From NCBI GenBank assembly GCA_963734895.1, contig CAVTIN010000001.1:18990-82989 (forward strand): a DNA stretch of 64,000 nt, given 5' to 3'. The position numbers and the translations under genes are program-made. Within the stretch, counting starts at the first letter, position 1; each line of letters opens with the position of its first letter. Below, piece after piece: positions 41,285 through 60,764 of this stretch. The notes under the pieces were generated by a model. That model saw nothing but the letters and a program-made list of their open reading frames with translations, did not search any database and was not told the origin of the DNA. This DNA is from an uncultured Chloroflexia bacterium. Its GTDB lineage: Bacteria > Chloroflexota > Limnocylindria > Limnocylindrales > CSP1-4.

Positions 41285-42217
41285 TCAGACCTTGAGGTTG
41301 ATCATGATCAGGATGATCGCCGGCCCCAGGATGACGATGAACAGCGACGGGAAGATGCAGCCCACGAGCGGGAACAGCATCTTGATCGGCGCCTTTGCGG
41401 CCATCGCCTCGGCGCGCTGACGGCGCTCGATCCGGAGCTGCTCCGACTGGACCTGGAGCACCTTGCTGATCGAGACCCCCAGCTGCTCGGCCTGGATGAT
41501 CGCCCCGATGAAGTTGGTCAAGGCGGAGACCTCGGTCCGCGGGACGATGTCGCGCAGCGCGTCACGTCGCGCCTTGCCCACCCGGATCTCAGCCAGCGCC
41601 CGCCGGAACTCCTCGGTCAGGGGTCCCTTGAGCTTTTCCACGACCTTGCCCAGCGCTCCGTCGAAGCCAAGGCCGGCGCGCACGGAGATCGTGAGCAGGT
41701 CGAGCGCGTCCGGGATCATCAGCAGGATCTGGTGCTGGCGCTTGCGCACCCGTCCGCCAAGCCAGAACTCCGGGATGGTGTAACCGAACATCAGGCCGAT
41801 CGGGATCATCACGAACCGCAGAACGAGGGGCAGCTCCATGAACCCGACGATCACGAACAACAGGAAGAACACGATCGCGCCGACGATGGCGCCCACGGCC
41901 TTGACGCCCAGCCAGTCGGCCGTGCGGAGACCGCCGGGGTTGCCCGCGAGCGCGAGGCGCTTCTCGGTCTGCTGGGTGAACGACGTGCTGGTGATGCCGG
42001 ACACGAACCCCGACAGACGGGCTGCCAGCGGCTTGAGCGTCCGGTCGACCAGCGGCTGCTGGAGCTCGAGCTCTTCCAGGTTCTTCGCCTGCATGGTCCC
42101 GAGCTGGGTCAGGCGAGCCTGCACAGGGTCAACGGGGCCGCTGCCGACGAGACCGAGGATGATCAGGAGGACCGCACCCGCGGCGACCGCGGCGATAAGG
42201 AGGGCGATGGGGTCCAT
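41285..42217 (-). CDS. tadC: Tad pilus platform protein (T2SSF family)
   Basis: PDALDLL, AGLGFD, QAEQLG, KMLFPLV motifs. Confidence 0.92.
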   Translation of the reverse strand: MDPIALLIAAVAAGAVLLIILGLVGSGPVDPVQARLTQLGTMQAKNLEELELQQPLVDRTLKPLAARLSGFVSGITSTSFTQQTEKRLALAGNPGGLRTADWLGVKAVGAIVGAIVFFLLFVIVGFMELPLVLRFVMIPIGLMFGYTIPEFWLGGRVRKRQHQILLMIPDALDLLTISVRAGLGFDGALGKVVEKLKGPLTEEFRRALAEIRVGKARRDALRDIVPRTEVSALTNFIGAIIQAEQLGVSISKVLQVQSEQLRIERRQRAEAMAAKAPIKMLFPLVGCIFPSLFIVILGPAIILIMINLKV

Positions 42218-42220
42218 ACG

Positions 42221-43237
42221 CTAGACCTCGATGTCGACGATTTTGCGGATAAGCATGAAGCCGATGAACATCGCGAACCCGCCGATCGCGAGGATGATCA
42301 CGCCGGCCGGCAGGCCGATGACCGACACGCGGTCATCGAACATGGGCGACATGAAGTTGGGCGCGGCAATGAACAGGAAGCCGGCCAGGCCGATCGGCAG
42401 GAAGCCGACGACGTAGCCCGACAGTCGCTGCTGAGCCGTCAGGGTGTTGATCTCGCCCTTGATCCGGACGCGCTCGCGGATGGTGAACGCGATCGAGTCG
42501 AGGATCTCGGCGAGGTTGCCGCCGACGGTGTGCTGGATCGAGATCGCGGTGGCCATCAGCTCCAGGTCGTCCGAGCGGACGCGGCGCACCATGTTCTCGA
42601 GCGCGGTGTCGAAGGCCAGCCCCAGGTTGACCTCGCGGATCACCCGGCCGAACTCCGTGGAGATCGGCGGGCGGGACTCGCGCACCACCAGCTCGATGGC
42701 CTGGAGGAACGAGGACCCGGCACGCAGCGCGTTGGCGATCAGCGTGATCGTGTCCGGCAGCTGCTTGTTGAACGAATTGAGCCGGCCCGACTTGCGGCGC
42801 CCCAGCCAGAAGCGCGGCAGCATGAACCCGATCAGCACGCCCACCAGGAGGACGATCGGGTTTCGCAGCGTGGGAACGCCGAGCGACAGGATGATCATCA
42901 GGAACGGGACGCCAAGCGTGGTCCCCGCCCACAGCACCAGGTACTCGGAGACCTTCAGGCGCAGATCGGCCCGCGCGATCTCGCGGGCGAGGTTCGCCCC
43001 GAAGTCGCGCTCCTCGACGACCCGGTTGAGCGACGCCAGCGCCACGCTGGACTGGATCGCGTCGGCAAGGCCCCCCTGGCCTCCTTCGACAACGGGCTTC
43101 TCCTGGCGGCCGGAGGCGTATCGCTCGAGGCGAGCGTTCACACCGGAGCCGCCGCCGGACATCGCCACGCCCACGGCGATCAGCAGGATCGCGAGGGCTG
43201 CGACGCCGGCGATAGCGATCGTCATGGTCATGTCCAC
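42221..43237 (-). CDS. tadB: Tad pilus platform protein (T2SSF family)
   Basis: QLPDTITLIANALRAG, GGNLAEILD, IRER, TAQQRLS motifs. Confidence 0.92.
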   Translation of the reverse strand: MDMTMTIAIAGVAALAILLIAVGVAMSGGGSGVNARLERYASGRQEKPVVEGGQGGLADAIQSSVALASLNRVVEERDFGANLAREIARADLRLKVSEYLVLWAGTTLGVPFLMIILSLGVPTLRNPIVLLVGVLIGFMLPRFWLGRRKSGRLNSFNKQLPDTITLIANALRAGSSFLQAIELVVRESRPPISTEFGRVIREVNLGLAFDTALENMVRRVRSDDLELMATAISIQHTVGGNLAEILDSIAFTIRERVRIKGEINTLTAQQRLSGYVVGFLPIGLAGFLFIAAPNFMSPMFDDRVSVIGLPAGVIILAIGGFAMFIGFMLIRKIVDIEV

Positions 43238-43263
43238 GAGCGAATTCTCCCCGTCCTGGTCGG

Positions 43264-44676
43264 CTAGAAGGTTGAGGTGAACAGGCCCTGGGGCAGGTGA
43301 ATGCCCTGGACCTCGAACTTTTCGACGAACTTGGGTCGGATGCCGGTCGGCTTGAGCCGGCCCTGGATCTTGCCCTCGACGACGCCGGTCTGCTCGAACA
43401 CGAACACGTCCTGCATGACGATGACGTCGCCCTCCATGCCCTGGACCTCGGTGATGTTGGTGATCCGGCGGGATCCATCCTTGAGGCGGGACTGGTGGAC
43501 GATGACGTCGACTGCCGAGGCGATCTGCTCGCGGATGGCGCGGACCGGGAGGTCGATGCCCGCCATGAGCACCATCGTCTCGAGGCGGGACAGCATGTCG
43601 CGCGGGCTGTTCGCGTGGCCGGTCGACATCGAGCCGTCGTGGCCGGTGTTCATGGCCTGGAGCATGTCCAGCGCCTCGCCCGAACGGCACTCGCCGACGA
43701 TGATCCGGTCGGGCCGCATGCGGAGCGCGTTGCGGACGAGCTCCCGGATCGCGATCTGGCCCTTGCCCTCGATGTTGGCCGGACGGGACTCGAGCGTCAC
43801 CACGTGCTCCTGGCGGAGCTGGAGCTCGGCGGCGTCCTCGATGGTCACGATCCGCTCGTCGTTCGGGATGAACGACGACAGGACGTTGAGCGTGGTGGTC
43901 TTGCCGGAACCGGTGCCGCCGGACACGAAGACGTTGAGGCGGGCCTCGACCGAGGCGCGCAGGAACTCGAACATGTCCGAGGTCGCGGTGCCGAAGCGGA
44001 CCAGGTCGTCCACCGTGAAGGGGGAGGCCGAGAACTTCCGGATCGTGACCACGGGACCGACCAGCGACAACGGCGGGATGATCGCGTTGACGCGGGAGCC
44101 GTCGGTGAGGCGCGCGTCGACCATCGGCGATGACTCGTCGACGCGGCGACCGATCGGGGCGATGATCCGATCGATGATCCGCATCACGTGGTCGTCGTTC
44201 TGGAACACGACGTTGGTCAGCTCGAGGCGGCCGGAGCGCTCGATGTAGACCTGGCGCGGGCCGTTGACCATGACCTCGGTGATGGACTCGTCGCGGAGCA
44301 GCGGCTCCAGGGGCCCGAGGCCGATGATCTCGTCGGTGATCTGCTCGAGCATGCGCACGCGCTCAGCACGCGTGAGCGCGAGACCTTCCTCGTCGATGAC
44401 CTTGCCGAAGATCTCCTCGATCTGCCGGCGGACCTCGACCTGGTTGGACAGGTCAAGCTTGGGGTCCAGGTCCTGGATGACGCGGTTCTGGATCCTGAAC
44501 TTGACGTCCCGGAACGACTCCCTGACCGGAGCCTGGGACATCAGCCGCGGCTGCGGCGCCGGCGTCACACCCCCAGCGTCGCCCGGACCTCCGGGCGTCG
44601 GAGCAGGGACAGTGGAACCGTCGGGCGCCCCGCTGGCGCCGGGACGGGCGCTTTCAATTCGCCTCAGGAGGGACAT
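43264..44676 (-). CDS. cpaF: Tad pilus assembly ATPase CpaF/TadA
   Basis: GGTGSGKTT, IEDAAEL, LRMRPDRIIVGE, AMNTGHDGS motifs. Confidence 0.96.
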   Translation of the reverse strand: MSLLRRIESARPGASGAPDGSTVPAPTPGGPGDAGGVTPAPQPRLMSQAPVRESFRDVKFRIQNRVIQDLDPKLDLSNQVEVRRQIEEIFGKVIDEEGLALTRAERVRMLEQITDEIIGLGPLEPLLRDESITEVMVNGPRQVYIERSGRLELTNVVFQNDDHVMRIIDRIIAPIGRRVDESSPMVDARLTDGSRVNAIIPPLSLVGPVVTIRKFSASPFTVDDLVRFGTATSDMFEFLRASVEARLNVFVSGGTGSGKTTTLNVLSSFIPNDERIVTIEDAAELQLRQEHVVTLESRPANIEGKGQIAIRELVRNALRMRPDRIIVGECRSGEALDMLQAMNTGHDGSMSTGHANSPRDMLSRLETMVLMAGIDLPVRAIREQIASAVDVIVHQSRLKDGSRRITNITEVQGMEGDVIVMQDVFVFEQTGVVEGKIQGRLKPTGIRPKFVEKFEVQGIHLPQGLFTSTF

Positions 44677-44723
44677 CGCCTACACCCCTTCGGCCGCGAG
44701 CGGCCGCTGCACATGCTGTCGCG

Positions 44724-45983
44724 TCATCGCCACGCGAACATCGACTTCTTCTGGGCGGCCTTGCTGTCGGTTTCGCCGGCCTCAGCCGGCTTGCTCCCGA
44801 CGACCGCATTGGCGAGGCGAAGGATGTCCTGGGACACCTGGGCTTCGCGATTTGACAGGAAGAACGGTACGCCCCGATTGAGGGCGTACACCACGCTGCG
44901 ACCGTCGGAGACGATCGTGTGGTCGACACGCCGGCCGATGGAGTGCTCCACGTCGGCGACGCGGATCCCCAGCGACGAGTCGGCCCGGTTGAGCACGAGC
45001 CGGATCTTGTCCGGACCGTAGCCCAGCTGCTCCGCCACCTCGAGGAAGAGGCGGATGTTCTTGATCGAGGTGATCTCGAGCGACAGCATCGTGAGGACGG
45101 TGTCGGCCAGATCGAGAATCGCGAGGGTCGTGTCGTTGAACGAGGACTGGCAGTCGACGACCACCAGGTCGTGGTCCCTGCTCAGGATCTCGACCGTCCG
45201 CTTCACGCCCGCGGGCGTGATCAGCTCCGCGGTCTCGGGCGACGGCGGGGCCAGCAGGACGCGGATGCCGGACGAGTGGTTGATCAGGTAGGTGCCCACG
45301 GTGTCCGGGTCGCCGCTCTCCATGTCCGGGACGAGGTCGGCGACCGACTTGTTCTTGGGATTGAGATTGAGCAGGACGCCCACGTCACCGAACTGGAACG
45401 AGGCATCCACGAGACAGGTGCGCTGCCCCAGCTCGGTCGCCGCGGCGACGGCCAGGTTGACCGCCAGCGTCGTGCGGCCTACCCCGCCCTTGGGCCCGAA
45501 CACCGCGATCACGCGGCCGGGCTCGCCGCTCGTTCGGCCGGCATCGGCCGCCCGCGATGCGCTCGCGCCGGCATCCTGCTGGACCGCGATCCGCGACAGC
45601 TTCTCGCGCTCCCGCGTATAGACCTGGCGGATCGAGGAGGTGAGCTCGTCGGAGGAGAACGGCTTGACCAGGAACTCCCGGGCGCCGGCCAGCATCGACC
45701 GGCGCAGGTAGTCCGCCTCGCCCTGGACCGACATCATGACGACGGACGCCGTCGGGACCTCCGCGGCGAGGCGCTCGGTGGTCGCGATGCCGTCCATGTC
45801 GGGCATGTTGATGTCCATCAGGACCACGTCCGGCGTGACCTTCGCGGCGATCTCGAGAGCTTCGCGTCCGGACGCCGCCGACCCGACGACCTCGAAATCA
45901 GCCTCGAAGCTCAGCAGCTTCGCGAGGTGATCTCGGGTCTCCGGGATGTCGTCGACGATAAGGACGCGGATCTGGTCTGCCAT
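44724..45983 (-). CDS. cpaE: Receiver domain fused to CpaE/TadZ MinD-like ATPase
   Basis: Intact REC (IVDD, LMDINMP, LVKPF) plus deviant Walker A KGGVGRTT and QFGD. Confidence 0.9.
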   Translation of the reverse strand: MADQIRVLIVDDIPETRDHLAKLLSFEADFEVVGSAASGREALEIAAKVTPDVVLMDINMPDMDGIATTERLAAEVPTASVVMMSVQGEADYLRRSMLAGAREFLVKPFSSDELTSSIRQVYTREREKLSRIAVQQDAGASASRAADAGRTSGEPGRVIAVFGPKGGVGRTTLAVNLAVAAATELGQRTCLVDASFQFGDVGVLLNLNPKNKSVADLVPDMESGDPDTVGTYLINHSSGIRVLLAPPSPETAELITPAGVKRTVEILSRDHDLVVVDCQSSFNDTTLAILDLADTVLTMLSLEITSIKNIRLFLEVAEQLGYGPDKIRLVLNRADSSLGIRVADVEHSIGRRVDHTIVSDGRSVVYALNRGVPFFLSNREAQVSQDILRLANAVVGSKPAEAGETDSKAAQKKSMFAWR

Positions 45984-46119: not shown

Positions 46120-47029
46120 CTAGGGCCGCGGTGTCGCCGTCGGGATGATGCCCTCGACCAGCTGCGGGACCAGGACTCCGTAGTCGTCCACGAGGCTCTT
46201 GAGGGTGATACCGGTGGTCGTGGCCGGAACGATCAGCGTCGGATCGAGCGGGAGCCCCGTATCCGGATCGCGGAAGTCATCCCCGCTGCGAAGCAGGAGC
46301 GAGATGTTGCCGTCGACCTCGGCGTACTTGATCACCTCGGCCTGCTGGGCGGTGACCGCGACGAGCACGATCTCCTGCTGGCCGTTGAGGTTGGTCGTGG
46401 TGGTGCTCTGGGTCGTCGTACCTGTGGTCGTGTCGGCTGGCGGTGGCGGCAGCAGCGTGCCCAGCACCTGCCCGCCCTGGACCAGCAGCTTGACGCTGGT
46501 CGCGTTGAGGCCGGAGACGACCGTGATGGACTGGTCGGTGGGGTTGAGGGTCACCACGGGGAACTTGTCGCCCGTGATCGCGACCACCATGTCGATGTAG
46601 TCGCCGGCCTTGATGACCGTGCCCACACCGGTGACCTGGTCGACCTGGATCGCGATCGCGACCCTGCCCGCCGGGACCTCGATGTTGGCGACCCCGCCGT
46701 TGGCCCCGCCGGTGGTGATGAGGGTCGTGATCGCCTGACCCGACGTGACGTTCTGCCGCGCGGTCTGGCCGATGACGAACGACAGGTCACCGAACGTTCC
46801 GACCGGGGCCGGGGCGTCAACTTCGGTGGTCGTGAGCATGTCGGCGGTGATCTTGCTGCCGAGCGGGATGTCCTGCTTCGCCACCACGATGGTGGCCTTC
46901 GTGATCGCCTCGGGAATTGTTGTCCCCGGTTGTGCCGCCGCCCCCCTGGGCGATGACGATCACGCCGACGAACGCGACGATGGCGAGGAAGATCCCGATG
47001 AGAAGGATCAACCGGTTTGAGCGCTTCAA
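46120..47029 (-). CDS. cpaB: Flp pilus assembly protein CpaB/RcpC, split by one frameshift near 46920-46950
   Basis: TM-bearing N-terminus (TTG 47029, GGAG RBS) in one frame; SAF domain VVAKQDIP and KAGDYID in the next frame. Confidence 0.85.
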
Positions 47030-47342
47030 AGGTGTTCTCCCCGAGCCGTAGTGACAGGTGGCACCACTCTAGCACCACGATTCTTGGCGACGACTAGTCG
47101 AAAGGGCTAGGACCGTTAGGAGGATTTGGGCAGAGACGCTGCGCATCGTAAGGTGCGCTGCAAGGAAGTATCGCGCCGGCGTCTCGACGATCGGGCCGCC
47201 GAGCTGCAGCTCGATGCAGACGCCCGCGGCGGGTGGATCGAGGGGTCGGTGGATCCGGATGACGCGGTCGACCGCCCGCTCGATCTCGCCGGAGACGCGG
47301 AACGGCACCGCGGTCCGCGGTGCCATGTCCCCCGGGAACACG

Positions 47343-47372
47343 ACGCCGGCTGCCCTTGCGGACAGCCGGCGT
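47343..47372 (-). terminator. Hairpin after Flp pilin
   Basis: ACGCCGGCTG/CAGCCGGCGT stem about 25 nt past the stop. Confidence 0.5.
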
Positions 47373-47396
47373 TCGATTGCTGCTTGGTGAGCCTGA

Positions 47397-47561
47397 CTAG
47401 ACGGAGTTGCCGACCGTCGACAGGATCGCCGAGACCTGGTTGCCCAGGAAGATCAGCGCGATGATCGCCACGATGGCGATGAGGGCGAGGATCAGCGCGT
47501 ACTCCGCGAGGCCCTGGCCTTCCTCGTCACGATTGAAGAGCGAGATAAGTGCATTCAGCAT
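47397..47561 (-). CDS. flp: Flp/type IVc pilin (54 aa), not in the ORF track
   Basis: MLNALISLFNRDEEGQGLAEYALILALIAIVAIIALIFLGNQVSAILSTVGNSV; G|QGLAEY motif; AAGGAGGT RBS. Confidence 0.96.
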   Translation of the reverse strand: MLNALISLFNRDEEGQGLAEYALILALIAIVAIIALIFLGNQVSAILSTVGNSV

Positions 47562-47611
47562 GATTGGGTTACCTCCTTCCCGTTAGATGTCCGCGATCGC
47601 GCGGCCTGCGC

Positions 47612-47640
47612 ACGGTATGTCGCCGCGTGCCCTGTGTCAA
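47612..47640 (-). promoter_or_regulatory. Sigma70-type promoter of the flp gene at 47561
   Basis: TTGACA-17 bp-TACCGT on the minus strand. Confidence 0.7.
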
Positions 47641-47702
47641 CCGATCCGGCCCGCTTCCGTTGCCCCGGCGCACAGCCACAACAGCACGGTTGCGGGATGC
47701 AC

Positions 47703-47731
47703 GAAGGCCGCCGGACGAGCCGGCGGCCTCC
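47703..47731 (-). terminator. Hairpin between the two flp genes
   Basis: AGGCCGCCGG/CCGGCGGCCT stem about 20 nt past the stop. Confidence 0.5.
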
Positions 47732-47751
47732 ACTGCGATCGGATCTGACGA

Positions 47752-47922
47752 CTAGACGGAGTTGCCGACCGTCGACAGGATCGATGAGACCTGGTTGCCC
47801 AGGAAGATCAGCGCGATGATCGCCACGATGGCGATGAGGGCGAGGATCAGCGCGTACTCCGCGAGGCCCTGGCCTTCGTCGTCACGCCGGATCGATGCAA
47901 GGAATGAGTTGATAAGCGCCAT
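47752..47922 (-). CDS. flp: Flp/type IVc pilin (56 aa), not in the ORF track
   Basis: MALINSFLASIRRDDEGQGLAEYALILALIAIVAIIALIFLGNQVSSILSTVGNSV; GGAGG RBS. Confidence 0.96.
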   Translation of the reverse strand: MALINSFLASIRRDDEGQGLAEYALILALIAIVAIIALIFLGNQVSSILSTVGNSV

Positions 47923-48035
47923 GCGGTGCCTCCCAAGATGAGTCCCGCCCCAAGATCAGGGCCCCCCCAACGTACGTGCTCTGGCCGCGCAAACCAATGA
48001 GACGATCGTCCTGGTACGGCGGGCCGGTCCCGGGG

Positions 48036-48200
48036 TCAGCGGCCCCCGTGCGCGACGTCTACGAGGACCCCGATCGCATCGGCCAGCGCCCCGCCGAAGA
48101 ACACGACGATGATCAGCGCGAGCGCGAGCGCGAGCGCGAGGATCAGCGCCGTCTCAACCATCCCAGGGCCGGTCTCGCCGGCGCCACGCGGCTCGATCAT
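48036..48200 (-). CDS. Divergent Flp-like pilin (54 aa), not in the ORF track
   Basis: MIEPRGAGETGPGMVETALILALALALALIIVVFFGGALADAIGVLVDVAHGGR; G|PGMVET; ATGA overlap with the upstream gene. Confidence 0.8.
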   Translation of the reverse strand: MIEPRGAGETGPGMVETALILALALALALIIVVFFGGALADAIGVLVDVAHGGR

Positions 48201-49417
48201 GCCGAGGGTACGGATTCTCCGGTGGCTGCGGGCACCACGAGCCGCAGCTCCCCGCCGCCCGACAAGAGCTCGATCGTTGCGCCGATGGTGGCGGCCCGGT
48301 CCGTGATGCCGCGACGGGTTGCCGCGGGCAGGACGACGACCGCGGCGACCTCCGCCGCCTCGGCGGCGGCCTGGCGAGCGTCGTGGCGGTCCTGGATCAT
48401 CTGCTTGATCGCGTCGGGCACGTCGCCGGTGGGCACCTCCGGCAGCGGCTCTTCGCCCTCGGGCGCGGTCGCGGCACGGTGCGTGGTGATGCGCGCCTCG
48501 AGCTCGTCGGTCCAGTCGAGCTGGACCGACATCCGGTCGGCGCCCTGCCCGAGATAGCCGGCCAGCGCCTCGTCCAGGATCCGGAAGACCGCGCTCTCGA
48601 CCTCCATCGGGAGGCGCCGGTCCGCACCCAGCGTTTCGAAATCCACCGCCACGTGTGCGCGACGGCCGCGATCGCGCGCCGCCCGCCGGAGCGTCGGCAT
48701 CAGGCCCAGGTCGTCGAGCACCATCGGCCGCACGTCGAAGATGAAGCTCTTGGTGGCCTCGATCGTCTGCTGCACCATCGATACGAGCTGCCCCAGCTCC
48801 CCCTTGGCGCGTCCCGGATCCCGGTCGAGCAGCCGCTCCACGATCTGCGCCTGGAGCACGATGTTGGTGAGCGACTGCGCAGGTCCGTCGTGCATCGCCC
48901 GGGCGATCTCCCGGCGCAGGTCCTCCTGCGCGTTGAGCACGGACCGTGAGCTCGAGGTCGCCGCCACCTCGCCGGCCGCCGCCTCGCGCTCCTGGTCGGC
49001 GGCGTCCACGCCCGCAGCCTCGGCGATGTCGGCGATCGCCGCGCGGTGGCGCGCGAGTGCCTTGCGCTTTCCCTCGAGCAGGTCGACCTGGGCCTCCATG
49101 AGGACGGCGCGACGCGTCAGCGCGACGAGCTGCGCATTGGTGTCGGCGGCGCTCCTGGGTTCAGCGCTCCTGGACACGCCGTCCTTGGACGCGCCGTCCT
49201 TGGACGCAGCCTTCTTGTCAGGCGCTGCCTTGTCCTGCTTCGCGACGCGGTCGGCGGCCTGCGCCCGCTTCTGCTCGTGCCGGGTCGCCTCCAGCCTGGC
49301 CTGCCCGATGAGCATGTCGATCTCTTCCAGCTCGTGGTCGAGCCCGGCCAGATCGGCCTCCAGTCGGGCGGCGAGCCCCTGCCGGGCGCCGAGCTGCGGA
49401 TCGGCGCCCGTGATCAG
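48197..49417 (-). CDS. DegS-like HisKA_3 protein with degenerate ATP-binding domain (pseudokinase/phosphotransferase); probable CTG start, first ATG at 49315
   Basis: Coiled-coil N-terminus, H-box MHDGPAQ, RPMVLDDLGL; N-box reads EALAGY; no DxGxG or GxGL. Confidence 0.82.
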   Translation of the reverse strand: MITGADPQLGARQGLAARLEADLAGLDHELEEIDMLIGQARLEATRHEQKRAQAADRVAKQDKAAPDKKAASKDGASKDGVSRSAEPRSAADTNAQLVALTRRAVLMEAQVDLLEGKRKALARHRAAIADIAEAAGVDAADQEREAAAGEVAATSSSRSVLNAQEDLRREIARAMHDGPAQSLTNIVLQAQIVERLLDRDPGRAKGELGQLVSMVQQTIEATKSFIFDVRPMVLDDLGLMPTLRRAARDRGRRAHVAVDFETLGADRRLPMEVESAVFRILDEALAGYLGQGADRMSVQLDWTDELEARITTHRAATAPEGEEPLPEVPTGDVPDAIKQMIQDRHDARQAAAEAAEVAAVVVLPAATRRGITDRAATIGATIELLSGGGELRLVVPAATGESVPSA

Positions 49418-50157
49418 TCCTCCGGCATCCGGATCCAGCCCTGGCGCATCGCGTACACCACGGCCTGGGTCCGGTCGTTGACGGAGAGCTTGCGGAGGAT
49501 CGAGCTCATGTGGTTCTTGACGGTCTGCTCGGAGATGGACAGCGCATAGGCCACCTGCTTGTTGGTCATGCCCTGCGCGATGTTGTCCAGGATCTCCACC
49601 TCGCGCGGCGAGAGCGGCGCGAAGATGGGCGCCGCTTCCTGGCCGTACACGGCCAGCTCGCGGAACTCCTTGAGCACCCGCGATGCGACCGCCGGCTTGC
49701 TGAACACCTTGTCGTTGATCAGGTACTCGCCGGCAACGACGCGGCGAATGACCATGACCAGGTCCTCGGGCGCGATGTCCTTGAGGATGAACGCAGCGGC
49801 GCCGGCCTTGATGGCCTCGAACAGCGCGTCCTCGTCCTCTTCGGTCGACAGCACGATGATCGCGGCGGCGGGCAGCTCCCGCTTGATCCGCTGCGTCGTC
49901 TCGATGCCACCGGGCGTGGGCAGCGAGAGATCCATCAGGATGACGTCGGGGTTGGTGGCAAATGCAGCGTCGATGGCGGTGCGCGAGTCATCCGCCTCGG
50001 CGACGATATCGAAGTCGGGCTCGCGCTCGAGGATGTTGCGGATCCCCATGCGCATCAGCGCATGGTTGTCGACGATCTCGATCTTCAACTGCTCGAACGT
50101 CTGGTTCCGGCGATCCTGCCCGCTACGGCGGCGCTCGGGCCCCTGGTACTCGGTCAT
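49414..50157 (-). CDS. NarL/DegU-family response regulator
   Basis: REC (ILMDLSLP, FILK) plus LuxR HTH LSPREVEIL...TVKNHMSSILRKL; N-terminal YQGPERRR extension. Confidence 0.95.
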   Translation of the reverse strand: MTEYQGPERRRSGQDRRNQTFEQLKIEIVDNHALMRMGIRNILEREPDFDIVAEADDSRTAIDAAFATNPDVILMDLSLPTPGGIETTQRIKRELPAAAIIVLSTEEDEDALFEAIKAGAAAFILKDIAPEDLVMVIRRVVAGEYLINDKVFSKPAVASRVLKEFRELAVYGQEAAPIFAPLSPREVEILDNIAQGMTNKQVAYALSISEQTVKNHMSSILRKLSVNDRTQAVVYAMRQGWIRMPED

Positions 50158-51317
50158 CCGCTCTCCTTTCGCGTCAACGGGATCGCCAGCCGGACCACGG
50201 TGCCTGCCTCCGGCCGCGAACGCACTTCGAACTGCGCGCCGATGAGCTCGGCCCGCTCACGCATGAACTGGAGGCCGAAGTTGCGACGACCGCGAGCCGC
50301 GACCGCCCCGACATCGAACCCGCGACCATCGTCGCGGACCTCCAGCACCCATTGTCCACCGTCCACGGCGGTGGCGACCACGACATCGGTCGCAGCCGCG
50401 TGCTTGCGGACATTCTGCAGTGCCTCCTGCACCACGCGCAGGACCACCGTCTGCGCAGCCTCGCCCAGCCCGTCCACCGGGGCATCGAGCTCGGTCGCGA
50501 TGTGCAGGCCGGACAGCGCTGCCTGCGTGGCCACCGTGTCCGCGATCGATCCGTCGAGCCCCAGCTCCGCCAGCACGGGGGGCCGCAGCTGGCCGATGAA
50601 CCCGCGCACGTCGCCCAGCTCGCGGCGCAGCAGCTCGCGCAGGAACCGGAGCTCCGTGCGGGCGAGCGGGTGATCGGAGTCGAACACCCGCTCGATGAAC
50701 TCGACCTGGAAGATCGCGTTCGACAGAACCTGGGCCGGGCCGTCGTGGACCTCCTGGGCCAGCCGCGCCCGCTCGGCCTCCTGGGCCTCCACGATGCGCA
50801 TCTGGACGTCGGTGGGCGTGCCGGGCGTGCTGTCGGACACCAGCGACGCATCGCCGCGCTCGAGGAACAGCCAGGTGCTCTCGAGGCTCTTGATCGCCAG
50901 CTCGAGCCGCGACAGCTCGGCCTCCCGACGGCCGAGCTCGGTCCGGAGCTGGCCCACCTCGCCGCGCACCATCCGCAGGCGAAGGTCGGCGGCTCCTGCC
51001 TCGGCGGCGGCAACGGCGAGCGCATCGAGCGAGACGGGAGCGCCCCGACCGCGCGATCCGTTGGAGGTGTCTGCGACGTCCGAGCCTGCATCGCCCGGCG
51101 TCTCGCGCTCGAACGACATCAGGTCGTCGCGCAGCGCCTGCCAGCGGGCAAGATCCTCGACATACGCGGTCCGGTACCGGTCGCGGACGGCGCGCAGCGT
51201 GTTGGCGCCGTACGAGAGCGCCTCGGCCGCCTCGGCCTGGAGCTCGTCGAAGCGCGTATCGGCCGGCTCGTCCATCGGACCATCCATCGGCTGGAGTGTA
51301 TCCGTGTCGCGCGTCAT
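50154..51317 (-). CDS. Cytoplasmic DegS-like sensor histidine kinase
   Basis: VHDGPAQ H-box, QEALQNVRKHA N-box, DDGRGF, FGLQFMRERA; no TM helix. Confidence 0.93.
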   Translation of the reverse strand: MTRDTDTLQPMDGPMDEPADTRFDELQAEAAEALSYGANTLRAVRDRYRTAYVEDLARWQALRDDLMSFERETPGDAGSDVADTSNGSRGRGAPVSLDALAVAAAEAGAADLRLRMVRGEVGQLRTELGRREAELSRLELAIKSLESTWLFLERGDASLVSDSTPGTPTDVQMRIVEAQEAERARLAQEVHDGPAQVLSNAIFQVEFIERVFDSDHPLARTELRFLRELLRRELGDVRGFIGQLRPPVLAELGLDGSIADTVATQAALSGLHIATELDAPVDGLGEAAQTVVLRVVQEALQNVRKHAAATDVVVATAVDGGQWVLEVRDDGRGFDVGAVAARGRRNFGLQFMRERAELIGAQFEVRSRPEAGTVVRLAIPLTRKESG

Positions 51318-53011
51318 GGCGAGGGCCGCCTGGTGGAAATCGGTGCCGGGACGGCGGCGACGCCGGCGCACACGATGCGGAACACGCGGATCCCATCGAG
51401 CGCTCCCACCTTCGCCGGATCGTCCGGGATCGGCAGCAGGACCTCCTGGAAGCACCGGGCGTCCGGCGCCGGCCCATCGAGCACCGCGGGCCATTGGCCG
51501 TGACCAGGATCGGCGGAGATGAGCCAGCGGGCGCCGAACCGCGTGGCGAGGTCGAGCACGTCGGCCGGTGACTCGTCGGGCAGCCCCAGCGTGGGCACTC
51601 GCTCCGTCTCGGCCAGCCAGATGGGGAAGTCCGTGATCACCGGAGTCGATCCGTCAAGGGGGGCACCGATCGCCTCCATCTGCTGCGCCAGCACGTCGTA
51701 CATCCCCTCGGTCGCGCGCGACCCGCCTCCGAACCCGGGCAGCAGCACCACGGTGAACAGGGCGGAGGCGAACACGCCCAGCAGCGGACCGAGCCAGGCG
51801 ACCGGCCGCGTCCAGCCCCGGCGTCGTCCAAGCGCGGCGATCCCGGCATCGAGCGCACCCAGCGCGGACAGGATCAGCAGCACGTGCACCGGAACGGCCG
51901 CGTGGAGGAAGGTGCCCCAGGTCGTCGCCACCGGGAACAGCAGGCTGGTGACGAGGAACGTGACGACGGACAGGATCACCAGCGGCCGCAGGACGCGATC
52001 GCGAGCCTGCCACGGGAGCGCGAGCAGGCCGAGGATCGACAGCGGGACCCCCAGGAACAGGAGGACGTTGCCCAGGTTGTGGCCGATCCCGGTGATCCGC
52101 ATGTCGAGCAGCGCTCCGGGTCCCACGGCGAGGTATCGCGACAGCGTCGGTGGCACGTTCCACGCGAAGATGTCGAAGCCGGACACCGACAATGCGTTGG
52201 AGACGGCCTGCCCCGGCAGCGGGTTGCCGAACACGACCCAGTCGCGGATCGCCCACGGCGCGAACACCGCCAGGCTGACGGCCGCCACCACGCCGATCAG
52301 CCGCAGCCGGATCGCGCGAGGCTGCGCGGGCAGCCGCCAGGCCAGCCATGCCCAGGCGAGGGCGAGCCAGACCGCCTCGTTGCGCGTCAGTGCCGCCGCG
52401 CCGAGGACCAGGCCCAGGCCGATCAGCCGTGGATCCCGGTATCGCGCGCCCGCCGGCGCTCGAAGGATGCGCGTCATCAGCAGGCACGCGGCAAGCGCGA
52501 GCACGCCGAACAGCATCGTGGAGTCCGGCAGCGCCGAGTGCAGGACCAGCGGCAGATAGACAGCGGTGGTCAGCCCGGTGCCGATGGCCAGCGTCCGCGC
52601 CCGCCCGACCGGCAGGTTGCGCTCGCGCGCGAGGTCGGCGGCCAGCCGCCAGGCCAGGACGACGAGCAGCGCCCCCAGCAGCGCCGAGGTGACCTGGGCC
52701 GCGCGCATCGCCGTCTCGAGCGGGATCGGCGCCCGTGCGCCCGACAGCACCATGGGGATCGCGTCGAGCAGCGACGGCAGCGGAAGCCAGACCTCGAACG
52801 CCGGCCGTGGGAACACCAGCGGCGGTGTCCCGTAGCTCCACAGCGCGTCGGACACGAGACCGCGCCCTTCGACCAGGTTGCGGGCAACTCCCACGTAGTA
52901 GGCGGTGTCCTCGGGTCTCGGGAAGGGGATCGTCGAGGCGGCGACCGCTCGCACGACGAGGGCAGCGACGAACAGGCCGATGGCGCTCAGCCAGGCCTCG
53001 CGGCGGCTCAT
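51314..53011 (-). CDS. GT-C fold (ArnT/PMT-like) membrane glycosyltransferase
   Basis: PEDTAYYVGVARNL loop after TM1, LTRNE, PWAIRD motifs; many TM helices. Confidence 0.8.
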   Translation of the reverse strand: MSRREAWLSAIGLFVAALVVRAVAASTIPFPRPEDTAYYVGVARNLVEGRGLVSDALWSYGTPPLVFPRPAFEVWLPLPSLLDAIPMVLSGARAPIPLETAMRAAQVTSALLGALLVVLAWRLAADLARERNLPVGRARTLAIGTGLTTAVYLPLVLHSALPDSTMLFGVLALAACLLMTRILRAPAGARYRDPRLIGLGLVLGAAALTRNEAVWLALAWAWLAWRLPAQPRAIRLRLIGVVAAVSLAVFAPWAIRDWVVFGNPLPGQAVSNALSVSGFDIFAWNVPPTLSRYLAVGPGALLDMRITGIGHNLGNVLLFLGVPLSILGLLALPWQARDRVLRPLVILSVVTFLVTSLLFPVATTWGTFLHAAVPVHVLLILSALGALDAGIAALGRRRGWTRPVAWLGPLLGVFASALFTVVLLPGFGGGSRATEGMYDVLAQQMEAIGAPLDGSTPVITDFPIWLAETERVPTLGLPDESPADVLDLATRFGARWLISADPGHGQWPAVLDGPAPDARCFQEVLLPIPDDPAKVGALDGIRVFRIVCAGVAAVPAPISTRRPSP

Positions 53012-54657
53012 CGGGTGCCTCCGACGAGGAGCGCGCTCGCGCCCGCTGAGCAGCGCGGGTCATCGGCGGCAAGGCAGACCGGGTACACGGACACGTCGTC
53101 GCGGCTGGTGATCGGCGGGCCTACCCACGCGGGTCGCTGGTGATCGACCAGGATCGCGCGCGCCGCGGGAACCGTATCGGCCTTCTCCAGGACCAGCCAG
53201 CGGATGTCGTACGCGCGCGCGACCGCCTCGACGGTGTCCAGCGGGTCGTTGACCAGGACGACCCCCGGGTGTCCGGTCCAGTAGCGATAGCCGGCGGCAT
53301 CGATCGACATCACGCGGTCCGACGCCGGAGCCCCGGCAGCGTCGAGCGCGGCACCGACCGCCTCCATCCGCTGGCGCTTGGCGTCCCACGTGGCATGCAC
53401 GCTGATCGCGCCGAAGACCGCGGCGAGGACGCCGAACGCGACCGCGCCACTCACGAACACCCGCGATGCCCGGGCCACGTCCCAGCCTCGCCGGCGAGCC
53501 GCGAGCCAGGCAATCCCGGCCACGATTCCGTCCAGCGCGAGCACATACCCGTGCGGCACCAGCGCGACGGCGGAGTGGATGAACGTTCCGCCGGGCACGT
53601 GCACGGCCGAGACCAGGGCGCTGAACGAGAACAGCAGCACGGCATAGCCAAGGAACGGGCCGAAGGTCGCGTCGCCGCGCCGCCGCCAGGCGCCGGCGAG
53701 CATGAACGGCACCAGCACCAGCACGCCCACGAGGATGCTGAAGATGAACATCGCGGCAACGAGGCCGCCCAGCCGGCTCAGCAGCAGCGGCCCGATGCCC
53801 ATGCCCAGCAGGTGGTCGAGCGTGGCCGGGATCGTGATGCTGTTCCACTCGCCGATGTCGCGGATGAACAGCACCTTGCCCGACGCCGTGGACGGAGACA
53901 GCGACCCGAACACGGCCAGCTGGCGCAGGTACCACGGACCGACCGAGACCGCGAACAGGGCGACGGCCCCGAGCGCCGCGACCAGCGGGATCCGGGCCGG
54001 GCGGGCCGGCCGATCCCCGAACGGCCGCCGCGTGCGCCATCGATCCCACAGGAACACGGCGCCCAGGACGGCCAGCACGAGCACCCCGTCGTTGCGTGAC
54101 AGCGTCGCCAGCCCGGCGAGCAGCCCCGCCAGCGCGAAGTCCCGCGGCCGGCCGCGAAGCCCTCGTGCGGCGAGCCACAGCGACCCGGCGACCAGCGGCT
54201 GGTACAGCGAGAAGTTGTCGGGCTGTGCCATGTACACGAACGACAGCGCTGGGAACGCGGTCAGCACGCCGGCCGCGGCCGCGACGAACGGGGAGAGCCC
54301 CGCGTCGCGCGCGATCGCCCAGGCCAGCGGCGCCGCGAACGCGCCGGCGATCGCGAACGGCAGGGCCGAGGCCATCGCCGTGGGACCCAGCAGCCAGATG
54401 AACGGCACCTGCACCAGCGACGCGAGCGGCATCCAGTGGGCGTTGGACGCGATCGGCAGGACCGGGTTGGCCGGGATCTTCCCGCCCACCTCGGCGAAGA
54501 TCCAGACCACGTCCACGTGGAAGCCGTGGCCGGCGGCCAGCTGGCGCGCCACGTCCACGTAGTAGAACGAGTCGGGGTAGGCCGGGTCCGGAAAGCCGGC
54601 CGCGACCACCAGGCGGGCCACGAGGGCGAGCGCATACAGGGCGATGGGTGTTCGCAC
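53008..54657 (-). CDS. GT-C fold (ArnT/PMT-like) membrane glycosyltransferase, paralog of the downstream gene
   Basis: YPDSFYYVDVARQL, HWMPL, LSRND, PWYLRQ, GGTFIHSA align by eye with the neighbouring gene. Confidence 0.8.
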   Translation of the reverse strand: MRTPIALYALALVARLVVAAGFPDPAYPDSFYYVDVARQLAAGHGFHVDVVWIFAEVGGKIPANPVLPIASNAHWMPLASLVQVPFIWLLGPTAMASALPFAIAGAFAAPLAWAIARDAGLSPFVAAAAGVLTAFPALSFVYMAQPDNFSLYQPLVAGSLWLAARGLRGRPRDFALAGLLAGLATLSRNDGVLVLAVLGAVFLWDRWRTRRPFGDRPARPARIPLVAALGAVALFAVSVGPWYLRQLAVFGSLSPSTASGKVLFIRDIGEWNSITIPATLDHLLGMGIGPLLLSRLGGLVAAMFIFSILVGVLVLVPFMLAGAWRRRGDATFGPFLGYAVLLFSFSALVSAVHVPGGTFIHSAVALVPHGYVLALDGIVAGIAWLAARRRGWDVARASRVFVSGAVAFGVLAAVFGAISVHATWDAKRQRMEAVGAALDAAGAPASDRVMSIDAAGYRYWTGHPGVVLVNDPLDTVEAVARAYDIRWLVLEKADTVPAARAILVDHQRPAWVGPPITSRDDVSVYPVCLAADDPRCSAGASALLVGGTR

Positions 54658-54771
54658 AGCCGGTGCAGCCTAGCACCGGGGGTGGGGCGCATCAGAGGGG
54701 TACGAACGGGCTATCGGGGTGCGGCAGCGGACCCGTCGCGAGGGCCCCGCCCGAACGAGTATCGTGCGCCG

Positions 54772-55669
54772 GTGACTTCCGCGCCTCGGCACAGGATCTC
54801 CCCGGGCGGCCGCCGTTCGTTGCGAGCCGTCGCAATCCTCGCGGCGGTTGTGGGTGTGCTGCTGGGGCTCGAGACCCTCGTGCTCCACCTGTCGTCCGAT
54901 CCGTTCGCCGACACCCGCGTGTACTACGACGCGGCAACGCGTCTGAACTCTGGCTTGCCGCTGTACGACGCATCGGCAACGAACAGCATCGGGCTGTATC
55001 TCAACCCGCCGTTGCTCGCCATCCTGTTCCGGCCGCTGGCGCTCATGCCGTTCGAAGTCGCGGCCGCGACGTGGGAGCTGATCGTGGTGGGTTCACTCGT
55101 GCTCGTGCTGCGGCGCATCGGCCTGCGAGAGCCTGTGCTCATCGCGCTCGGCTGCCTCGCGCTGCCGATCCTCTGGGCGCTGAGCGTCGGCCAGGCTGAG
55201 CCGGTGGTGACGCTCCTGCTCGCGATCGGGAGCCCTGCCGCGGTCGCATTCGCAGGGCACCTGAAGCTGCTCCCATGGCTCGTTGCGGTGTTCTGGATCG
55301 GGCGGCGTGACCTGCGGTCGCTCGGGCGCTTTGCCGGTTGGGCCTTGGCGATCGGGGCAATCCAGCTTGTGCTGGAACCGGCCGGCACGCTCGCGTACGT
55401 GCAGCTGACATGGCTCCAACCCGCGTTCGATGTCCGCAACGTCTCGCCGTTCGCCATCCACCCCGTGCTGTGGCTTGCCATGGTTGCCGGTCTGACTGCC
55501 GCTGCACTGCGCCTGGCGCGCACGCCCTGGGGTTGGCCGCTGGCGGTATCGCTCGCCGTTCTCACGTATCCGCGGCTGCTCGTGTACCAGCTGACATCGC
55601 TGCTCGCGGCGTTCGGCGGGCCCCGGTCCCCAGGCGGAGGGATCCGCCCCGTGGTGGTCCTCGCATTGA
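54772..55669 (+). CDS. GT87-like (DUF2029) membrane glycosyltransferase; reads in-frame into the next gene as given
   Basis: DTRVYYDAA, YLNPPLLA, GQAE, LKLLP motifs; out-of-frame TGA overlaps ATG 55669. Confidence 0.7.
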
Positions 55670-57435
55670 TGCCCGCCACCCTGCCCGCCCCTGTCGGCCG
55701 CCGAGACGTGGTCGCGCTGACGATTCTCAGCCTGATCGGCGTTGGCGTCCCCCTCTGGCTGTCAGCGGCAGCGGGTGCCATCGGCATCCCGGGCAACGAC
55801 GGCTGGGTGTACATGCAAGCAGCGGAGGGCCTGTTCCGGACGGGCAGTCTGGACATGCCCGGCCACACGGCGGCGTCGGTCGGGCAGGTCGTGACCGTCC
55901 AGCCCTTCCTGTGGCTGTCGGGCGGCGACCCCTGGGCGTTCACCGCCTACGGGCTGGTTCTCACGCTGATCGGCGTGGTGGCCACGTATCTCCTCGCCCG
56001 GTGCTTCGTCGGGACGGGAGCTGCGGTCCTGGTGGTGCTGCTGGTGGAGGCCTTCCCGGGGTTTGCCCGCGAGACCGTGGCGTTCATGACCGACGTTCCA
56101 ACGTATGCGCTCACGATGCTGTGCCTCCTCCTGGGCGTCCGGTGGCTCCAGGGCGGAAGCCGGCGGATGGAGCTGGCCGCGTCAATGGCGGTCGGCCTGC
56201 TGGCGGTCAGCATCCGGGAGTTCGCCCTGGCGGCGCCGGTCGCGATCCTGGTTGTCGGCTGGGCCCGCGGCCGCGCGGACGAGCGCGCGTGGCTTGCCGC
56301 GTGTCGGCTGCGCTTGCCGTTGGCGTCCTGGCTGTCCTCGCCTTTGTTGCCTCGATCACGGGCCGGTCCGTGCCGACGACGCCGGACATCGGGAGGCTGG
56401 CGATCATCGGGCCGGCCTTCGCGACGCTCGCCGCGGTGCTCCTTCCTGCCACCGCGCTGGCCGTGGGCCGGCGCATCGCAACGGTCACCGCCGGCCAGGT
56501 CATCCTCGCGGCCGGCGTCATCCTTTGCTGCGCCGTCGTGGCGTTCCCGCACGGTGCGCTCGCGGGAAACCTGTGGCTTGCGAATGGGATCGCCGGCAAC
56601 GACCTGCTGGCAGGGAGTCGCGATGCGGTGATCGGTGACTACGCATGGGCACTGTCGGAGCAGCTGGCCTGGTTCGCGGCGATGCTCCTTGCCGCCCTGG
56701 CCATCCGGTCGGTCGAGACGGCCGCGGGAGCGGCCCGATCGCGAGTCGCGCTCAAGGCATCCGTCCGACGCGTCGCCGACGGCACGGAGGCACCATTGAT
56801 GGTGTTTCTGGCGGTGTACGTCGCGGGCCTCCTCGCGTTTGCGTCGGTCGGCACCATCCTCGACCGATACCTCTTCCTCATCGTTCCCGCCTCGGCCGTC
56901 CTCCTCCTGCGGGGCGCCCCCAGGCGGGATGGCCTCGGCCGGAGTCATGCGTTCGCCCACGGCGCTTTCGCGTGGCTCGCCGTTTCCGGGATCGTCATCG
57001 CAGCCAACTCGTTCGCATACGATGCGGCGCGCTGGCGCGCCGGCTGGATGCGGTGGCGATGGGCTATGACGCGGCGACCGTGGACGCCGGCTACGAATGG
57101 GTCGGGTACCACGCGAACGGGGCGGGCAACGCGGATCCCGGCTATGGCATCACCTGGTACGACGATTGGATCGCAAACGCGCGTCCCTGCGCGGTCGTGT
57201 CCAATACCCAGGTGGAGCTCGGCAGATTCCGACTCATCGGGGTGGACCGGCGGCCTACCGCAAGTACCTGTTCCTTGGTCCCGCCCAACCGCTGTTCCTG
57301 TACGGTGCCCTGGCGGCCGCGTGTCCGAGGCTTCCCTCCAGGCCTCGCGGCGCGGCGACCCCAGACGCTGACGGGCTCGGTTCGCTGACTGGCTGCGGGT
57401 GGCTACACTTCCGCCATCGTCCGCAGCGGCGCTAG
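55669..57435 (+). CDS. GT-C fold membrane glycosyltransferase, split by about three frameshifts
   Basis: [30 protein letters not shown] motifs spread over successive frames (shifts near 56305, 57045, 57250). Confidence 0.65.
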
Positions 57436-60757: not shown

Positions 60758-60764
60758 GCGGGCG

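Follow-up and report, generated by a model that had tools for sequence, protein, structure and literature searches.

A two-component operon with a degenerate kinase paralogue and a GT-C gene pair at the head of the Tad pilus locus in a Candidatus Limnocylindrales family

Why would two membrane glycosyltransferase genes of the GT-C superfamily, two kinase-type genes, a response regulator gene and a small pilin gene be strung together on one strand, directly upstream of a Tad (Flp) pilus locus? This question is raised by a stretch of 64,000 nucleotides (hereafter, the window) from the contig CAVTIN010000001.1 of an uncultured Chloroflexia bacterium (assembly GCA_963734895.1; 2.5 Mb in 15 contigs, 74% complete). 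The G+C content of the window is about 70%. We interpret the string as the head of a Tad (Flp) pilus super-locus, serving regulation and modification; within Candidatus Limnocylindrales, this super-locus is a fixed feature of the family to which the window belongs. A preliminary description, made from the letters of the window, had placed six open reading frames (ORFs) on the minus strand, and their positions and strand are confirmed (Table 1). The gene identities hold as well, and Pfam and NCBIfam confirm the domain content: the six encode two GT-C enzymes (GT-C1 and GT-C2), a HisKA_3 histidine kinase (HK1), a NarL/DegU-type response regulator, a pseudokinase and a Flp-like pilin (the mini-pilin). 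The flp-tad-comF genes do come downstream, as had been described: flp, cpaB, cpaE, cpaF, tadB and tadC are followed by a ComF-like gene and a ribosome hibernation factor gene.

We then investigated the gene neighborhood in relatives, using the best 80 of 399 stretches that encode a pseudokinase relative. These relatives belong to the Chloroflexota (Candidatus Limnocylindria/Limnocylindrales). The order GT-C, GT-C, kinase, regulator, pseudokinase, pilins and CpaB-CpaE-CpaF-TadB-TadC is colinear on one strand in all 80 loci, as far as the contigs extend. Fifty-four of these loci are complete from GT-C1 to TadC, and 65 are complete from GT-C1 through Flp. Protein identity falls to about 45–55% for the least conserved genes of the locus, while the regulator is among the most conserved (78–100% identity over the aligned part). 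The neighborhood check in relatives that the preliminary description had proposed thus came out in its favor, with the order conserved well above what chance would give and tied to the Tad locus. The architecture, which had been called unrecognized, is found lineage-wide and is not unique to this genome, although we did not find the combination in print.

The preliminary description also listed five consecutive 4-bp stop/start overlaps. Four of them stand and read ATGA (53008-53011, 51314-51317, 50154-50157 and 48197-48200), whereas the fifth, between the regulator and the pseudokinase (49414-49417), reads CTGA and requires a CTG start. No ATG, GTG or TTG codon exists from the regulator stop to the ATG at 49315. 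In most relatives, a spacer of 30–40 nt is followed by an ATG whose counterpart in the alignment is the first residue of the protein read from CTG, indicating that the N-terminal 34 residues of the pseudokinase are homologous coding sequence. Because the junction is CTGA, the start in the window is uncertain and may be either CTG 49417 or ATG 49315. Among the relatives, 4-bp overlaps with canonical starts were found at the GT-C1/GT-C2 (55/66 loci), GT-C2/kinase (54/72), kinase/regulator (64/75) and pseudokinase/pilin (30/61) junctions, while they are rare at the regulator/pseudokinase junction (8/80), unlike the other four. A chance origin of the overlaps was rejected, given their recurrence across relatives.

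The distribution of the pseudokinase was examined at two scales. In the window's genus, a full-length pseudokinase was detected at E<=1e-100 in 18 of 24 genomes; in the sister family, whose genomes are about 1.1 Mb, none of 16 genomes has one. A phylum-wide draw comprised 301 genomes, including three unpublished ones (G310, G212 and G266), which are used in the tallies of this draw only. Full-length matches (E<1e-120) were confined to the window's family, where 13 of the 15 sampled genomes have one; in a fourteenth, the match is divided between two contig ends. Matches at E<=1e-25 occur in 144 of the 301 genomes and mostly cover the N-terminal coil and the dimerization and histidine phosphotransfer (DHp) domain. 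We also collected 20 loci around related kinases from other families of Chloroflexota as an out-group. Flp or Tad genes lie beside the kinase in 14 of these 20 loci, and GT-C1-like genes lie upstream of the regulators in four (L139 and L151 of family f34, L142 of f59 and L153 of f9). In L139, three large membrane genes are followed by kinase, regulator, kinase, Flp, CpaB and CpaE genes, and L153 is similar. One of the L139 membrane proteins matches PMT_2 and one is 31% identical to GT-C1; a 523-aa membrane protein of this locus aligned only weakly with the GT-C2 profile (hhalign, E 0.02, probability 2%) and is GT-C-like by context only.

The kinase, the regulator and the pseudokinase

HK1 has both a HisKA_3 domain (2e-14) and a HATPase_c domain (1.9e-13) in Pfam, and no transmembrane (TM)-like segment. 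The regulator consists of Response_reg (5e-25) and GerE (1e-22) domains, and its best NCBIfam models are NarP/NarL (1e-45 to 1e-47, below their cut-offs). In contrast to HK1, the pseudokinase orthologs contain HisKA_3 in 34 of 34 cases and HATPase_c in none of the 34. Their alignment shows an invariant MHDGPAQSLTN stretch including H176, an invariant DxxxQ phosphatase motif, and no N, G1 or G2 box. The pseudokinase is therefore predicted to be incapable of autophosphorylation. According to the literature, the DxxxQ motif beside the histidine in HisKA_3 kinases is required for the phosphatase activity of NarX (PMC3510030, citing Huynh et al. 2010). In the structure model of the pseudokinase (predicted local distance difference test score, pLDDT, 84), a DHp hairpin is retained together with an α/β unit resembling a catalytic and ATP-binding (CA) domain. 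The best fold matches of this model are DesK chains, and the ATP-binding domains of VraS and DosS are also listed.

HK1 and the pseudokinase share 39% identity across 80 DHp residues and nothing elsewhere. To place them, a quick maximum-likelihood tree of 54 sequences was built and rooted at the midpoint; it contains long branches. The pseudokinases form a clade (support 100, stem 1.68) nested among Tad-linked kinases that are intact, one of which is the second kinase of f34. HK1 groups apart from them, in a clade shared with f34's first kinase (support 99). The out-group kinases have HATPase_c in 21 of 22 cases and the Pfam DegS domain in 13 of 22, ten of these above the cut-off. On the other hand, the DegS domain was matched neither in HK1 nor in any of the 34 pseudokinase orthologs. 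The label "DegS-like", which the preliminary description gave to both kinase-type proteins, therefore suits the pseudokinase clade by its intact relatives. We read the pseudokinase as the ancestral DegS-type, Tad-linked kinase, whose capacity to bind ATP would have disappeared in this family, which also has a second kinase. A HisKA_3-only kinase-like protein was also observed in family f4 (genome G067, L155:9710-10840, minus strand); in the tree it groups with the pseudokinases (support 81%), at the end of a long branch, and may represent a second, independent loss of the ATP site.

DegU controls competence and surface behavior in Bacillus subtilis. Like DegS-DegU of that species, the present system has a soluble HisKA_3 kinase with a coiled-coil N-terminus and a regulator with receiver (REC) and GerE domains. 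Unlike DegS-DegU, it pairs each regulator with two kinase-type genes, of which one encodes a protein lacking an ATP site, and is wired to a Tad locus. Histidine kinases without kinase activity have been encountered before. DivL is said to be a histidine-kinase pseudokinase that still modulates a two-component pathway. In Corynebacterium, an evolved ChrS variant with a frameshift in the CA domain is discussed as acting via its paralog HrrS, and native ChrS and HrrS heterodimerized in bacterial adenylate cyclase two-hybrid (BACTH) assays (PMC9491836). The pseudokinase resembles the evolved ChrS variant in being a kinase-fold protein without catalytic ATP binding that could modulate a two-component pathway (PMC9491836). 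In contrast to DivL and ChrS, the loss of the CA motifs is ancient here and fixed family-wide, the histidine and the DxxxQ motif are kept, and the gene has an ATGA overlap with a pilin gene.

The 17-bp element

A 17-bp sequence element recurs in front of the operon and the pilus genes (Table 1). From 71 loci, we aligned the sequences that precede flp1, the flp gene closest downstream of the mini-pilin gene, and found a common block, GtACcAtcgtcc.AgTG, abutting a weak -35-like hexamer; it is followed by a -10-like hexamer, a small GC hairpin, ACTCATC and GGAGG. A position weight matrix (PWM) trained on the flp1 sites alone was then run on the 250 nt upstream of GT-C1 and upstream of cpaB. Upstream of GT-C1, the best match lies at one place and in one orientation in 53 of 61 loci (GTACGAAtgGgCTA). 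Upstream of cpaB, a fixed place and orientation were likewise found in 43 of 67 loci, with the consensus ATACcAAaGGGCTAGGA at -78 to -92. The median best scores for the GT-C1 and cpaB regions are 8.5 and 8.7 bits, versus -0.2 and 2.0 bits, respectively, in composition-matched shuffles of the same regions.

With a combined PWM of the three classes, the whole 2.5-Mb genome contains 40 matches of at least 11 bits. The GT-C1 site is the top match genome-wide (21.3 bits), and the cpaB and flp1 sites score 15.9 and 12.6 bits. Two independent matches (16.7 and 13.9 bits, about 75 nt apart) were found in the promoter region, about 540 bp long, of a TadE gene on another contig of the same genome (G000 contig C13). 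These two copies (C13:72363-72454) have opposite orientations, and the TadE gene belongs to a TadE-/TadG-like cluster; six of the nine TadE-domain matches of this genome are at 71–77 kb of C13. The exact 14-nt pattern RTACSAWNNGSCTA was also searched in three other genomes. In G006 (3.6 Mb), its single match is located upstream of GT-C1; G323 has two matches, which by position lie between the pseudokinase and the Tad machinery genes. Thus, in two of the three genomes, every exact match (3/3) is within the Tad locus, whereas the reversed control pattern gave eight matches in G006, G323 and G292 together. The preliminary description had proposed that the operon is coordinated with Tad pilus production; the common upstream element lends support to co-regulation with flp/tad and suggests that the operon and the flp and tad genes are switched together.

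A 17-mer identical to the flp1 element was observed elsewhere on C13 (138830-138846, plus strand), 52–68 nt upstream of a gene for a 453-aa protein, with unrelated flanks. This protein has a Cys-Pro-Phe-Cys motif and by eye resembles a tandem DsbA/thioredoxin-like protein; its gene may be a further member of the regulon.

Consensus-based scans of 46900-55000 gave neither promoters nor terminators (0 sites of either kind), and promoters were hence assigned by eye from the alignments. Promoter-like sequences of the TTGACA-N17-TACCGT type precede Flp2 as well as later flp genes in relatives; flp1 differs in this respect. In the flp1 leader, the conserved ACTCATC lies between the small GC hairpin and GGAGG. 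Single-sequence folds of the leader hairpin (47925-47970, minus strand) have a mean minimum free energy of -10.2 versus -7.2 for shuffles, with 42 of 52 at or below -8. RNAalifold gave no consensus structure for 52 of the 71 flp1 leaders, because the loop alignment is out of register. A search of 46900-48300 against Rfam gave nothing above gathering; a c-di-GMP-II-GAG hit of 24.5 bits (cut-off 40) falls inside a coding region, and we attribute it to chance. Downstream of Flp1, a hairpin rich in GC was seen, GGCCGCCGG...CCGGCGGCC, whose short tail contains few T residues (spans for this hairpin and the promoter-like sequences: 47562-47751 and 47923-48035, minus strand).

The GT-C pair, the pilins and the neighboring genes

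GT-C1 matches Pfam PMT_2 (E 7.4e-8; 33.2 bits, cut-off 26.1). Besides this, neither GT-C1 nor GT-C2 has a Pfam match at E<=0.01, so that the core PMT and MIR models are unmatched by both, and profile searches of both against PDB sequences returned nothing meaningful. The two proteins are paralogous (29% identity over 517 residues) and have nine and eight TM-like segments by hydropathy, respectively. Each has an acidic loop motif after TM1: PAYPDSxYY in GT-C1, with D29 at least 90% conserved, and PEDTAYY in GT-C2, with D35 invariant and E34 at least 90% conserved. The GT-C2 structure model is helical (pLDDT 89; predicted template modeling score 0.90) with a small α/β unit as its C-terminal domain. 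In a Foldseek search with this model, all 33 chains at E<=1e-3 are GT-C enzyme entries. With at least eight helices, an acidic first-loop motif and the shared fold in the model, both proteins can be assigned to the GT-C superfamily. The best structural matches of the GT-C2 model are protein O-mannosyltransferases. Compared with those of family GT39 (Pmt1-Pmt2 and Pmt4), however, the pair has only 12–13% identity, and the Z margin over oligosaccharyltransferase (OST), AglB and ArnT is merely 2–4.

A GT-C enzyme that acts on a pilin is known from group IV Pseudomonas aeruginosa, where TfpW glycosylates the type IVa pilin and is required for its O-glycosylation (bioRxiv 10.1101/2020.04.19.049825). 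Like TfpW, GT-C1 and GT-C2 are polytopic GT-C proteins with an acidic loop motif, which is essential in TfpW, and are encoded near a pilin gene. TfpW differs in its type IVa pilin substrate, its location downstream of pilA and its C-terminal tetratricopeptide repeat (TPR) domain (bioRxiv 10.1101/2020.04.19.049825), whereas here two paralogs with a small α/β C-terminal domain and no Pfam TPR match are encoded upstream of Flp genes and have a putative substrate. TfpW and the GT-C pair are likened by description only.

The mini-pilin has no Pfam match at E<=0.01, including Flp_Fap, and Flp1 and Flp2 themselves score below the Flp_Fap cut-off. It aligns end to end with Flp1, Flp2 and 37 orthologs, with G13, E16 and G36 invariant and G11 conserved in at least 90%. 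The mini-pilin thus retains the residues expected around a prepilin processing site at three positions, G11, G13 and E16. The window and its near relatives have Thr instead of the Tyr that follows Glu in more distant orthologs (EY). A gene of this type follows the pseudokinase gene in 49 of the 72 loci with a full-length pseudokinase call. The mini-pilin is probably a minor pilin. The possibility of a TadE/TadF pseudopilin was rejected on the basis of its length of 54 aa, its end-to-end Flp alignment and the presence of TadE-domain genes elsewhere in the genome. The last 16 residues contain on average 4.4 Ser/Thr in the major Flp tails (n=211) and 1.2 in the mini-pilins (n=54).

Table 1. Features of the pilus-linked operon and its surroundings (positions in the window)
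Feature	Position	Strand	Remarks
GT-C1, 549 aa, PMT_2-like, first gene of the operon	53008..54657	-	Pfam PMT_2; GTG start as in orthologs
GT-C2, 565-aa paralog of GT-C1	51314..53011	-	
HK1, soluble HisKA_3 histidine kinase, ATP-binding domain intact	50154..51317	-	ATG 51317 agrees with ortholog starts
NarL/DegU-type response regulator (REC + GerE helix-turn-helix)	49414..50157	-	
Pseudokinase, DegS-clade HisKA_3 protein, degenerate CA domain	48197..49417	-	Start CTG 49417 or ATG 49315
Mini-pilin, small divergent Flp-type prepilin, 54 aa	48036..48200	-	
17-bp element GTACGAACGGGCTATCG	54700..54716	+	43-59 nt upstream of GT-C1 start
17-bp element GGACGATCGTCTCATTG, abutting weak -35 of first flp gene	47995..48011	-	-35/-10 assigned by eye
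Diverged element copy AGTCGAAAGGGCTAGGA	47096..47112	+	About 83 nt upstream of cpaB
Flp1 major pilin	47752..47922	-	Flp_Fap 1.1e-4 (below cut-off); GQGLAEYALIL motif
Flp2 major pilin, own TTGACA-type promoter-like sequence	47397..47561	-	Flp_Fap 1.2e-5 (below cut-off)
cpaB/rcpC, two frames in the window	46120..47029	-	RcpC + SAF domains
cpaE/tadZ (REC + ParA-type ATPase), cpaF/tadA, tadB, tadC	41285..45983	-	Pfam Response_reg + AAA_31, T2SSE, T2SSF x2
Divergent GT87-like and PMT_2-like GT-C genes, frames broken	54826..57371 (broken-frame span given as 54436-57371)	+	GT87 1.8e-8, PMT_2 3e-5

Some of the neighboring genes are interrupted. The cpaB gene is split into two frames (46817-47029 and 46120-46887, minus strand) with the break near a G6 run, while it is a single frame in relatives such as L026. 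The sugar-nucleotide genes at 57455-60807 have broken or fused frames, as do the divergent GT-C genes. All these breaks are probably homopolymer errors of the assembly. The nucleotide-sugar cluster adjoining the GT-C genes (57455-63655, plus strand) encodes an NTP-transferase, a 4,6-dehydratase-type epimerase, a DegT aminotransferase, a C-methyltransferase and an epimerase. These genes are not conserved with the locus (NTP-transferase in 1/81 and DegT in 2/81 loci), and a GT87 relative is found in the upstream flank of 42 of 81 loci. The receiver domain of CpaE/TadZ (44724-45983, minus strand) scores 101.5 bits, far over the Pfam cut-off, and its Asp, Ser/Thr and Lys residues are canonical by eye; CpaE/TadZ could be a second phospho-acceptor for the kinases of the locus.

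A proposed circuit, its alternatives and its precedents

We propose that a locus-specific two-component circuit, composed of a kinase and its phosphatase-only paralog, controls the Tad pili together with the GT-C pair, which would glycosylate either pilins or the envelope; we regard the chances of this proposal as evenly balanced. HK1 would phosphorylate the regulator. The pseudokinase, descended from the ancestral DegS-type kinase that neighbors Tad loci across Chloroflexota, would target this regulator too, whether by phosphatase activity alone, as a phosphoryl sink or by modulating it as a partner, since it keeps the histidine and the DxxxQ motif. The phosphorylated regulator, which is the sole protein with a recognizable DNA-binding domain among the locus genes scanned, would bind the 17-bp element upstream of its own operon, flp1, cpaB and the unlinked TadE pseudopilin operon, so that the pilus subunits, the pilus machine and the GT-C pair would be switched jointly. 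The GT-C pair, probably a heterodimer like Pmt1-Pmt2, would move a sugar from a polyprenyl-phosphate donor outside the membrane. Its likeliest acceptor would be the C-terminal tails of the major Flp pilins, which are rich in Ser and Thr, or else another envelope component working with the pili, and the mini-pilin would serve as a minor pilin. We infer pilin glycosylation from the gene linkage, the modeled fold and the Ser/Thr-rich pilin tails, and favor pilins as the acceptor because of the PMT-like fold and the TfpW precedent.

Several observations weigh against this proposal. In the window's genus, the locus was not found in four of the 24 genomes (68–90% complete), which gave weak pseudokinase matches only, two further genomes gave a frame-broken or partial match only, and the same-genus genome G119, although 97% complete, gave no match. 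Although Flp and TadE genes are present, the 74%-complete genome of the window gave no match to the prepilin peptidase family Peptidase_A24. The operon encodes no polyprenyl-phosphate sugar synthase, and the additional GT-C genes (GT87 and PMT_2) that adjoin it divergently would fit a role in envelope glycans. The cryo-electron microscopy map of the Caulobacter Tad pilus reportedly has no extra density attributable to glycosylation (PMC10710030). With regard to the element, its single exact 14-nt match in G292 lies away from the Tad locus, and its flp1 and cpaB copies are diverged in the window's genus, the cpaB copy reaching only 0.4 bits with the flp1-trained PWM. The assignment of the element to the operon's regulator, as opposed to another factor, is a putative one. 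The kinase tree, as a quick midpoint-rooted search with long branches, is a further weakness.

What, then, are the alternatives? The GT-C pair may build or decorate another envelope component co-regulated with the Tad pili, such as a wall glycan, an S-layer or lipoglycan, or an adhesive polysaccharide, much as the Caulobacter holdfast is functionally coupled to Tad pili; taken as a full account of the pair, this seems to us a tentative but serious candidate. As an acceptor, an envelope glycan is nearly as likely as the pilins, because GT87 and PMT_2 genes neighbor the locus and the Caulobacter pilus is described as unglycosylated (PMC10710030). The nucleotide-sugar genes, however, are not kept with the locus, the 4-bp overlaps bind the GT-C pair to the regulators in most loci, and the structural matches to protein O-mannosyltransferases and the Ser/Thr-rich tails of the major Flp proteins point to pilins instead. 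Another explanation, that the linkage of GT-C, regulator and pilus genes is historical and was frozen by vertical descent without functional coupling, gains from the fact that the 80 loci all come from one lineage and are not independent. It is nevertheless very improbable in our judgment: the order and the overlaps are retained while protein identity drops to 45–55%, similar strings of GT-C, regulator and Tad genes with differing numbers of GT-C genes exist in f34, f59 and f9, and the element is present upstream of GT-C1.

The signaling steps can be read in other ways as well. The preliminary description had inferred a branched phosphorelay, which finds little favor with a pseudokinase that lacks the N, G1 and G2 boxes and retains the histidine and DxxxQ. 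As the pseudokinase is predicted to be unable to autophosphorylate and keeps these two features, a kinase/phosphatase pair converging on one regulator appears more economical. The invariant histidine, the ChrS pseudokinase acting via HrrS together with the native ChrS-HrrS heterodimers in BACTH (PMC9491836), and the canonical receiver domain of CpaE/TadZ as a possible second acceptor would fit a pseudokinase that is no phosphatase and serves as a heterodimer partner or scaffold of HK1 or as a His-phosphotransfer intermediate, as in the branched phosphorelay. We consider this unlikely, as the two proteins are distant paralogs with similarity confined to 80 DHp residues, they fall into separate clades whose f34 members are both intact, which fits two separate homodimeric inputs, and the DxxxQ motif is invariant. 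We give a comparably low probability to the view that a different regulator binds the element, or that the element belongs to an alternative-sigma promoter, with the operon's regulator controlling other genes. The identical 17-mer upstream of the DsbA-like gene and the many PWM matches of at least 11 bits inside unrelated ORFs would agree with this, and the pairing of the regulator with the element is a prediction. Against it, copies of the element are found in either orientation, which is not typical of a sigma promoter. Moreover, no second protein with a recognizable DNA-binding domain was seen among the locus genes scanned, and in G006 and G323 the Tad locus accounts for nearly all exact matches.

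A bolder form of the proposed circuit can be imagined, in which the PMT-like GT-C heterodimer is a dedicated Flp-pilin O-glycosylation module of the Tad regulon in Chloroflexota and the pseudokinase and mini-pilin form a feedback sensor. By analogy with PilS, which reads PilA, the kinase-dead DegS-type protein would read unprocessed or unassembled prepilin and set the phosphorylation of the regulator via its phosphatase face. We regard this as a long shot. A complex prediction for two pseudokinase chains with the mini-pilin, run without controls, gave a score of 0.00 and a mark of 0.32 and is evidence neither way.

The single pieces of the locus all have precedents: two-component systems by flp/tad, DegS/DegU-type pairs, TfpW, and the pseudokinases DivL and ChrS. 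PprA-PprB of Pseudomonas aeruginosa reportedly exerts two-component control over Flp/Tad pili and is encoded beside the cluster. In Pectobacterium, ECA0785/ECA0786 lies beside flp/tad and activates it, and deletion of the regulator lowers the flp, rcpA, rcpB and tadA transcripts (PMC3767616). The present operon is like both in having a kinase-regulator pair beside the flp/tad cluster. The Pectobacterium pair consists of an OmpR-type regulator and a BaeS-like kinase (PMC3767616), while a soluble HisKA_3 kinase and a NarL/DegU-type regulator are found here, and unlike both precedents the operon also holds a kinase-dead paralog, two GT-C genes and the mini-pilin. As far as we searched (main texts), neither the combination, nor a fixed pseudokinase with an overlapping pilin gene, nor the operon-wide element was found in print. 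The main Limnocylindria genomics paper contains no occurrence of pili, Tad, Flp, glycosyltransferase or two-component, and no Flp-glycosylating enzyme surfaced in one full-text search on Flp pilin, glycosylation and Tad. Tad pili are the pili reported in the cultured Chloroflexota of two studies (PMC7332563; bioRxiv 10.1101/2025.08.19.671072), and the terms glycosyl, two-component and histidine kinase do not occur in the searched text of these two papers. Thus, the feature is real, lineage-wide and undescribed. As judged from the alignments and the tree, what appears new is a pseudokinase nested among intact, DegS-domain, Tad-linked kinases of other families, as well as a predicted 17-bp element that recurs upstream of the operon, the first flp gene, cpaB and an unlinked TadE operon.

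If the proposed circuit is true, an abundant uncultured lineage of soil and freshwater would have a regulon open to test, with a kinase, a phosphatase-only paralog, a regulator and a 17-bp operator. The family would also provide a natural case of a histidine kinase that became a fixed pseudokinase once a second kinase had joined its pathway, and the GT-C pair would be a concrete candidate for the enzyme that adds sugar to Flp pilins.

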